A stretch of DNA of 64,000 nucleotides from Promethearchaeota archaeon Loki_b32. GTDB lineage: Archaea > Asgardarchaeota > Lokiarchaeia > Sigyniarchaeales > SOKP01. The DNA lies in the NCBI GenBank assembly GCA_005223125.1, contig NJBH01000003.1:128001-192000 (forward strand), written 5' to 3'. The notes below the pieces were generated by a model that made no database searches, was not told the origin of the DNA, and saw only the letters and a list, made by a program, of their open reading frames with translations. The first letter of the stretch is position 1. Each line of letters opens with the position of its first letter. Below, piece by piece: positions 45,910-49,970 of this stretch. The position numbers were made by a program, and so were the translations under genes.

Positions 45910-46131
45910 TTAATTTACTAAATTTTCTTGAAGTTCGTTTTCCAACTCAGATTCTATCAAACTAGGAGAAAGACTCCTATTTATAGATTCTTCTATCAAA
46001 TATTCTGTTCTAATTAAGTCTCGAATCGCCACTCGAATCGCTTCACTCCTATTCGGGAATTTTCCGTCAACGACAAGGATCTCTAATACTTTTAGATAAG
46101 ATTCAGGTAAGTTTACTGAAATTAGTTTCAT
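45910..46131 (-). CDS. Ribbon-helix-helix regulator, CdrS-like
   Basis: MKLISVNLP...G.FPNRSEAIR.AIRDL. Confidence 0.85.
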   Translation of the reverse strand: MKLISVNLPESYLKVLEILVVDGKFPNRSEAIRVAIRDLIRTEYLIEESINRSLSPSLIESELENELQENLVN

Positions 46132-46727: not shown

Positions 46728-46921
46728 TGATGAAATTGTTTCTTATAATTCATCAATGCCAATTTAGTTTTAACTTTTAAGAAAATATTTTATTTATTAA
46801 ATTTATTATTAATTTAATATTACTATAGAGGAAAAGTATAAATTTCAATTACTTTAAACCTATAATATAAAAAAATTGTCAAATTAAAGAAATCATTAAA
46901 AATTAGAGTTGAAATAGAAAA

Positions 46922-47235
46922 ATGTCAGAAGCAGACGGAATTCACTGTCAAGTTTGTGGAAAAGATCAATTTTCTCTTGCTCACGATGAGTTAAATTCCT
47001 AAATCAGGTTTTACGTCATTGGATGAGAAGGGCATTTCCCTTTGTCGAGCAAGGTCAATTAAAAATGTGTGCTGGATGTGGAGCAAAATATCTGGTTTGT
47101 GAGAGTTGTGGAGGTTTATATTGTCGAATTCATCCAGCTTTAGAGAGTTGGGAACTTCCTGATAAATGTTCTAAGTGTGGACATGTAAATAAAGATGTAA
47201 CTGCCTGGGATGGTACATCTGCTCGTCACTTCTAA
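46922..47235 (+). CDS. Double zinc-ribbon protein (94 aa when spliced; exons 46922-46990 and 47020-47235)
   Basis: Exon 1 MSEADGIHCQVCGKDQFSLAHDE plus exon 2 WMRRAFPF...CAGC..CESC..CSKC gives four CxxC. SD-like GAGTTGA precedes ATG 46922. Confidence 0.75.
46991..47019 (+). other. Candidate 29-nt bulge-helix-bulge mRNA intron
   Basis: Central helix GAUG/CGUC, 3-nt bulges AGU and AUU, inner helix UAAA/UUUA. Cutting after nt 2 of each bulge removes exactly 29 nt and the in-frame TAA. Confidence 0.7.
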
Positions 47236-48923: not shown

Positions 48924-49970
48924 TTGAATGAAGAAATCCCTATTTGGAGAATTAAGTACCATCCTAAGAATTTAGACCAAATTTGTGGAAGAAAAGAGGT
49001 TAAGGAAACCCTAAAGCACATCATTCAACAAAAAAATTTTCCACATATGTTATTTGTCGGATCGAAAGGTATTGGAAAAACATTAATTGCTCAATTATTT
49101 TCAAAAGAGTTTCTTGATAAAGATTATAATGCAAATTTTAAATTGATTTATGCTAATGTGCCACTAAATGAAGAAGAAAGGAAACAAGCGAGAGCTGATG
49201 CGTATGTTTCTACAAGTAAGATAGGAAGTAGTGCTGGAAGAAGAATAACGACTCCGGCTTTCATTCAAGCACGAGTAAAGCCTTTTGTTCAAGTGAAAGT
49301 TTTAGGAAGTGCCCCTTTTAAAATTTTAATAGTGAAAAATTTTGAAGCATTGGGTCAAAATCAACAAGGCTTTAGGAGATTAATGGAAATATATGGTAGA
49401 AATTGCAGGATGATTTTAATTACTACTAAAATTTCAAGTATAATTAGCCCCATTGTTAGTAGATGTCAAATTGTATTAATTTCTGCTGTAAAGTTGAATC
49501 ATTTTAAAAATTTGATAAACAAAATTGCCGTCCAAGAATCTTTAGAGGTCTCTGATGAGGTTGTTGAAGTTTTATATAAAATTTCTGAAGGAAGAATATC
49601 TCGTGCTATAGATCTATTACAATTGAGCAGCATTTCGGGAAAGAGTATTGATATGGAAAAATTATATGAAAATTCTCAACAATTTAGCAATGATAATATA
49701 AGGAGCCTATTAATGGTAGCTTTTAAAGGAGACTTTCCAAAAGTTCGAGAATTATCGCGCAAAATCATTTCTAGCTATAAGTATGATATTCATGAATTTT
49801 TTAAGTTCATTATTGACGAAATTAATAAATTACCTTTAAGCAAATTTGTCCGGAGTAATTTAATAAATTTCATTGCAGATTCTGATTTCAGAGCACTTGA
49901 AGGGAGAGATATAGATATTCAAATATCTGCTCTGTTATCAAAGATTTGCCTGTTTTCAGAATTTATGTAA
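48924..49970 (+). CDS. Divergent second RFC small subunit (degenerate Walker B)
   Basis: W..KYHP, GSKGIGKT, IVKNFE in place of LDEAD, SRC retained. Confidence 0.82.
   Translation: MNEEIPIWRIKYHPKNLDQICGRKEVKETLKHIIQQKNFPHMLFVGSKGIGKTLIAQLFSKEFLDKDYNANFKLIYANVPLNEEERKQARADAYVSTSKIGSSAGRRITTPAFIQARVKPFVQVKVLGSAPFKILIVKNFEALGQNQQGFRRLMEIYGRNCRMILITTKISSIISPIVSRCQIVLISAVKLNHFKNLINKIAVQESLEVSDEVVEVLYKISEGRISRAIDLLQLSSISGKSIDMEKLYENSQQFSNDNIRSLLMVAFKGDFPKVRELSRKIISSYKYDIHEFFKFIIDEINKLPLSKFVRSNLINFIADSDFRALEGRDIDIQISALLSKICLFSEFM

Follow-up and report, generated by a model that had tools for sequence, protein, structure and literature searches.

The gene considered here raises a simple question: how can a protein be made from a coding sequence whose reading frame is broken? 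In the window, that is, the whole 64,000-nt stretch of DNA that was analysed, the open reading frame (ORF) beginning at ATG 46922 encodes 26 amino acids and ends in LNS-stop (TAA at 47000-47002), and the remaining 70-aa ORF, 47023-47235, is in a different frame. The initial annotation interpreted the break as a bulge-helix-bulge (BHB) intron of the type cut by the splicing endonuclease EndA, and its coordinates, both ORFs, the SD-like GAGTTGA and the elements of the fold were all recovered when the sequence was read again. When a cut is placed after the second base of each bulge, 46991-47019 (29 nt) is taken out, GAG is joined to TGG, and a 94-aa protein with four CxxC pairs results that is collinear with its orthologues; the predicted junction of the spliced form joins CACGATGAG to TGGATGAGA, and the junction peptide would be DQFSLAHDEWMR. 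In our judgement, 46991-47019 is very probably a BHB intron that was gained sporadically and is removed constitutively by EndA and RtcB. Below, G000 denotes the source genome (4.1 Mb), which belongs to a Loki-type Asgard archaeon, and C its contigs, the window being C24:128001-192000; other G numbers denote the genomes of relatives, L loci, and P proteins. The features of the gene are as follows.

46829..46846, + strand: BRE/TATA-like element AAAAG-TATAAAT, a putative promoter as judged from the sequence
46906..46912, + strand: SD-like GAGTTGA, 9 nt ahead of the start codon; similar GAG(T/C)TGA in several relatives
46922..46990, + strand: exon 1, 23 codons with the first CxxC, ending in HDE; defined by orthologues and by purifying selection in carriers
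46980..46984, + strand: 5' strand of the exon-exon outer helix, CUCA and then C pairing with G47021
46985..46991, + strand: 5' strand of the central helix, GAUG, and 3-nt bulge AG^U; 5' cut at 46990/46991
46991..47019, + strand: 29-nt BHB-type intron, frame-shifting, with in-frame TAA at 47000-02 and inner hairpin at 46992-47013; absent in 60/68 inspected orthologue loci
47014..47020, + strand: 3' strand of the central helix, CGUC, and 3-nt bulge AU^U; 3' cut at 47019/47020
47020..47235, + strand: exon 2, 71 codons plus stop, with three CxxC; at most 96% identity to intronless orthologues
47022..47027, + strand: second GAUG plus two bases, corresponding to the central helix of the relatives' second intron site (after 47027), which is empty here

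The core of the BRE/TATA-like element lies near 46832-43, and with a strict pattern a motif of this kind is seen ahead of the gene at 12 of the 30 genus loci; a sigma-70 promoter scan of the locus is uninformative for archaea. Downstream, the gene adjoins GNAT-RFC, with 182 T-rich bases in between. The adjacency described previously holds, and the gene precedes the GNAT gene in 29 of the 30 genus loci.

In the predicted BHB conformation, all four pairs of the central helix GAUG (46985-88)/CGUC (47014-17) are formed, one of them as G.U, and the bulges AGU (46989-91) and AUU (47018-20) are 3 nt each and lie on opposite strands. The inner helix consists of UAAA/UUUA and CCU/AGG (4 bp + 3 bp), in which relatives show covariation. 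The outer helix, already described as imperfect, is relaxed: a single pair, C46984-G47021, is followed by a 2-nt bulge and then by 4 bp, CUCA/UGAG. By itself, such a fold is weak evidence, because the strict BHB motif (16-90 nt) is common genome-wide, with 155,877 matches in the 4.1-Mb genome, or about 2,000 per length. A self-splicing group I or group II intron was also considered and rejected, since the core of such introns needs hundreds of bases and the insert has 29 nt; an Rfam search of the insert gave no match up to E = 1.

Stronger evidence comes from the orthologues, for which the DNA of 68 Promethearchaeota genome loci was inspected across the site. Contiguous genes, which the initial annotation had anticipated, are the rule: 60 of the 68 loci are unbroken and read through as HDE-WM[KR]R or close variants. 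Inserts are carried by 8 of the 68 genomes, at two sites 8 nt apart. Site 1 is occupied in G000 (29 nt) and in G005, G027, and G093 (30 nt), and homologous introns of 29-30 nt are also found at this site in loci L084 and L093. Site 2, within the codon following Met, is occupied in G012 and G094 (30 nt), G153 (28 nt), and G157 (29 nt), and assembly GCA_048882145.1 has a 32-nt insert there. The orthologues fix the junction to within a 1-nt slide, with the same product either way, and the EndA rule selects one of the registers.

Public contigs were also searched by a motif-free procedure that required conserved codons and 26-41 extra bases between DE and R. The search gave 19 matches (12 from metagenomes and 7 from genomes, several of them redundant), all with inserts of 28-30 nt, and in all 19 the protein-restoring register has a 4-bp central helix, two 3-nt bulges, and the first outer pair. 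Counting L031 and G000, there are 14 distinct insert sequences (5 at site 1 and 9 at site 2); in every one, a central helix lies between 3-nt bulges and the cut rule gives the junction of the intronless orthologues, and in 12 of them the inner helix has at least 4 bp. When inserts are shuffled at the boundaries defined by the alignment, the strict motif arises in 0.02-0.2% of cases and the central helix alone in 3-5%; note that these probabilities are not simply multiplied, since inserts at the same site are partly related.

Inserts that vary at one site, with compensating changes in their pairs, had also been expected, and the 14 distinct sequences provide them. Pair counts, taken from 5 related sequences at site 1 and 9 at site 2 and scored on a structure derived from those sequences, give 100% paired cells for the central helix at both sites. 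At site 1, the central pair joining an exon base and an intron base is exchanged among U-A, U.G, and C-G, and 94% of cells are paired versus 31-45% in slid registers (11/500 shuffles, which with five sequences is suggestive only). At site 2, 13 double-sided changes are counted in the inner helix (0/500 shuffles).

The same comparison bears on whether the segment could be an assembly artefact, or the footprint of a mobile element that was removed at the DNA level. The exact 29-nt sequence occurs in one assembly only, which would suit an artefact; however, independent assemblies have homologous inserts at this site, there is no target-site duplication, a search of G000 for a second copy of the intron found none (best 22/29), and the Rfam result is likewise negative. 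We give this explanation almost no chance of being correct.

The nearest relatives (G032, L074, and L073) are intronless, and the carriers are scattered over the gene tree, which is based on about 270 nt and is too short for counting gains and losses. The introns of G005 and G093 (L012 and L033) are nearly identical and both proteins have the unusual start GKTCDVC, yet the two exon 2 sequences are far apart (dS 1.3); this pattern suggests that recombination may have moved exon 1 together with its intron. At L078:1001-1258, on a low-coverage contig, an orthologue (P0008) is missing the 10 residues that follow HDE; this in-frame loss of 30 nt at the intron site may represent an assembly slip or imprecise intron loss. 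Two proteins considered as spliced copies of the present gene, P0015 and P0002, were rejected as such, since they come from intronless relatives, with DNA identities of 91% and 87%.

The interrupted gene is maintained by selection. Pairwise dN/dS among insert carriers is 0.03-0.12, similar to that of intronless pairs, and the G000 gene has values of 0.06-0.08 against its nearest relatives with both exons intact, although a recent loss of splicing would leave no trace yet in such ratios. For exon 1 alone, seven disjoint carrier pairs give pS 0.54 versus pN 0.11; thus, a segment that would otherwise be a useless unspliced 26-aa fragment is under selection.

Translational recoding (frameshift, readthrough, or hopping) could in principle restore the protein without splicing, and the stop right after the break together with the hairpin does resemble bypass signals, which are known from T4 gene 60. 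However, the inserts of 28, 29, 30, and 32 nt cover all three frames and need different shifts, every 30-nt insert contains an in-frame stop, and some inserts contain two stops, so that no single frameshift or readthrough rule fits. Moreover, the take-off and landing codons are unmatched, GAG preceding the insert and CAT preceding TGG; the GAT GAG further downstream is out of frame; the orthologues leave no space for added residues; and the paired 3-nt bulges would be unexplained. We therefore regard recoding as vanishingly improbable. At the level of sequence, these comparisons show that the insert does not belong to the coding sequence and is BHB-bounded at the register that restores the protein, and that the gene is under selection. 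The claim of an EndA-type BHB intron with this exact junction in an Asgard protein-coding gene is strongly supported by them.

A problem arises when the energy of the fold is considered, a point that was missed earlier. The predicted minimum-energy fold has a slipped register, in which 46985-89 pairs with 47016-20 and both bulges are hidden. The BHB conformer lies 6.6 kcal/mol above this predicted minimum (P about 4e-5 at 37 C), in an energy model that leaves out enzyme binding and co-transcriptional folding. The gap is the largest of the 17 introns tested, the other 16 having gaps of 0-5.8 kcal/mol, so that this allele may splice poorly or more slowly. For the G093 allele, the gap is 0.2 kcal/mol.

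It could accordingly be asked whether the intron class is real and this allele is poorly spliced, in a gene that was lately inactivated or split, ATG 47023 then serving as the restart codon of the 70-aa ORF. Besides having the worst energy gap of the set, the locus offers this in-frame ATG as the second codon of exon 2, with a weak AGGT 13-14 nt upstream. On the other hand, both exons are intact and conserved at the low dN/dS given above, and all central and inner pairs are retained despite about 11 differences between the G000 and G005 introns. Introns of the G005 type, with a gap of 5.8 kcal/mol, persist in several assemblies with intact exons, and restart at this ATG cannot explain site 2, since the site-2 introns lie past it. 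A dead or split gene is, in our estimation, very unlikely.

The slipped fold also bears on whether the intron gates expression, either through the fold itself or through EndA availability. A competing fold of this type hides both bulges in the other site-1 introns as well, and early termination would follow in 11 of the 12 introns that were translated in unspliced form. Against gating, the energy gap varies over the set (0-6.6 kcal/mol) instead of being conserved, and no dedicated nuclease is seen. In addition, only 8 of the 68 inspected genomes have an intron, at one or the other of two sites; these carriers are dispersed in the gene tree, and the nearest relatives are intronless. The initial annotation had gone further and compared such splicing-gated expression to that of XBP1; this part of its interpretation is not supported by the distribution just described. 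In the IRE1/XBP1 system, a short frame-shifting intron is likewise ligated by RtcB, the enzyme and RNA motif being different from EndA and the BHB; XBP1 also has a dedicated stress-activated nuclease, two separate stem-loops, and a conserved position, none of which is seen here. We consider gating unlikely, and there is a correspondingly low probability that the slipped fold is a control point, with the output of the zinc protein set by RNA refolding or by spare EndA/RtcB capacity. If it were one, regulated splicing that depends on RtcB would have an archaeal precursor, as far as its logic is concerned.

The reading that we prefer, a constitutively removed BHB intron, can be stated as a series of predicted steps. 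The gene's own BRE/TATA-like promoter would drive a message that folds into the BHB; a two-subunit EndA would cut past the second base of each bulge; and RtcB would join the exons as GAG and UGG, from which the 94-aa zinc-binding protein would be made. An unspliced message would be stopped at codon 27 and give the 26-aa fragment. The intron would then be a tolerated passenger for the housekeeping tRNA-splicing machinery and not a regulatory device. G000 encodes two EndA paralogues (PF01974) and one RtcB (PF01139). By motif reading only, one EndA has the Tyr/His/Lys triad and the other is without the His, which fits the two-subunit EndA linked to cbf5 splicing (PMC2738675). ARAGORN finds only 13 tRNA genes in G000, and in most of them the introns are garbled, which is to be expected if the tRNAs are heavily interrupted; a clear 28-nt BHB tRNA intron is present at C48:141179-141282.

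The zinc protein gene is not the only one of its kind in this genome. The only uL11 gene of G000 is split by a 28-nt BHB insert between Pfam positions 26/27 (C57:12438-12465, + strand). A deletion search scored by protein similarity places inserts at the same 28-nt site in 12 relatives, where one of the equally best-scoring registers has all four pairs of the central helix, and seven other relatives have inserts at two further uL11 sites (35 and 36-37 nt); the uL11 loci are L079, L080, and L103-L121. Several genomes with a uL11 intron do not have the zinc-gene intron, and thus the introns come and go gene by gene. As a side observation, the uL11 intron of G097 (L120) shares 12 bases, TTAAATTCCTAA, with window 46991-47002, which may be an AT-rich chance match.

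Four more genes of G000 are interrupted by BHB-type inserts, and in each of them conserved motifs are regained on removal of the insert. A paralogue of EF-2 (C3:75804, + strand) has a 30-nt stop-rich insert in the P-loop, the canonical EF-2 at C22 being intact; removal of 29 nt from a proteasome alpha gene (C4:22685, + strand) gives a gap-free 227-aa alignment to a paralogue; and removal of a 33-nt insert from cdhD (C45:47178, + strand) and of a 53-nt insert from gyrB (the sole match, C56:37059, - strand) restores conserved motifs. Counting only such genes, that is, those supported by homology or conserved motifs, the zinc gene would be one of at least six with predicted mRNA introns of this type in G000. 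The genome-wide scan for BHB-bounded frame breaks that had been proposed was productive in part: it found uL11, but ab initio scoring (motif, coding score, and energy) was noisy and gave no length peak at 29-33 nt. Further candidates that rank high in the ab initio scan are C20:13225 (- strand, 30 nt), C27:21006 (+ strand, 32 nt), and C31:1271 (- strand, 36 nt).

The nearest known case is the cbf5 pre-mRNA intron of Desulfurococcales and Sulfolobales, for which splicing inside an archaeal coding sequence was proven, introns in other archaeal protein genes having been predicted earlier (PMC2738675). The two cases have in common a short intron in the coding sequence, BHB boundaries, a cut between the second and third bulge bases, a two-subunit EndA, and a lineage-specific distribution. 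The present introns differ in belonging to another phylum and gene, in occupying two sites 8 nt apart, and in being scattered within one genus, where cbf5 has a single ancient gain; in addition, five or more further genes of G000 are interrupted, and the present introns are predicted from sequence, whereas cbf5 splicing is proven. A second case is the 46-nt BHB intron in the 5' UTR of Haloferax HVO_1309 (PMC7714728; PMC10485636), for which cbf5 was named as the sole other example (PMC7714728); a 2023 review counts two genes with such introns (PMC10485636). It is likewise an EndA-cleaved BHB intron in an mRNA, but it lies outside the coding sequence, whereas the present intron breaks the reading frame, so that the protein requires splicing. 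In Asgard archaea, tRNA introns have the same motif, a similar size (28 nt in G000), repeated independent gains, and a two-paralogue EndA; the two studies concerned (PMC11291895; bioRxiv 10.64898/2026.10.13.758758) treat tRNA genes only, and the term 'mRNA' is absent from the preprint. In the literature that we searched, which was largely freely available papers, archaeal coding-sequence splicing by the endonuclease is documented for cbf5 only, plus the one 5' UTR case, and no paper on Asgard mRNA splicing was found.

Should the inserts prove to be spliced, splicing of protein-coding messages would be routine in the closest archaeal relatives of eukaryotes, with gain and loss of introns inside a single genus and on two occasions no more than 8 nt apart in the same small gene. 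Current annotations would then miss or mis-call such genes; P0003 and P0005 would be mis-calls, and uL11 falls below the Pfam cut-off. The gene would also offer a natural system for the origin of short introns at exon motifs, the exon GAUG being used at both sites, and for how splicing copes with ribosomes on one transcript.

As for the protein, which is conserved throughout Promethearchaeales, its gene has a match in 133 of the 161 genomes of the class, some of these matches being paralogues; in the single-contig genomes G044 and G055, the matches are contiguous. The four CxxC pairs are invariant, as is an R-x-H-P-x-L-E-x-W stretch, which suggests a protein with two zinc sites. Pfam and NCBIfam give nothing above the cut-off; there are sub-threshold zinc-ribbon matches, DZR (PF12773) not being among those listed, and weak DZR-containing Atlas clusters at 0.86-0.87, so the label 'double zinc ribbon' rests on the four CxxC pairs. 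An AlphaFold model is modest (pLDDT 69.5, from 9 sequences), and Foldseek finds no match for it at E <= 0.001 (best Z 3.0), so that this model demonstrates neither a known nor a new fold. Over the profile, Atlas, and structure searches, no family, solved structure, or named cluster was matched. In other genera and families, a divergent tandem paralogue (30-43% identity) is found (G069:C168, G070:C116, G041:C75, G039:C49, G045:C1, and G055:C1).

The gene has a fixed setting that consists of a CdrS-like ribbon-helix-helix (RHH) gene, a small unknown gene, the zinc gene, and GNAT-RFC. Purely by association, this neighbourhood would fit a function in replication or in control of the cell cycle. 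In the window, the RHH gene is at 45910-46131 on the - strand, oriented divergently to the two small genes ahead of GNAT-RFC, and it matches the CdrS-like NF058555 at E 6e-10, below the cut-off. On the other side, window 48924-49970 (+ strand) encodes a second RFC small subunit, in which KNFE stands where the Walker B motif is expected.
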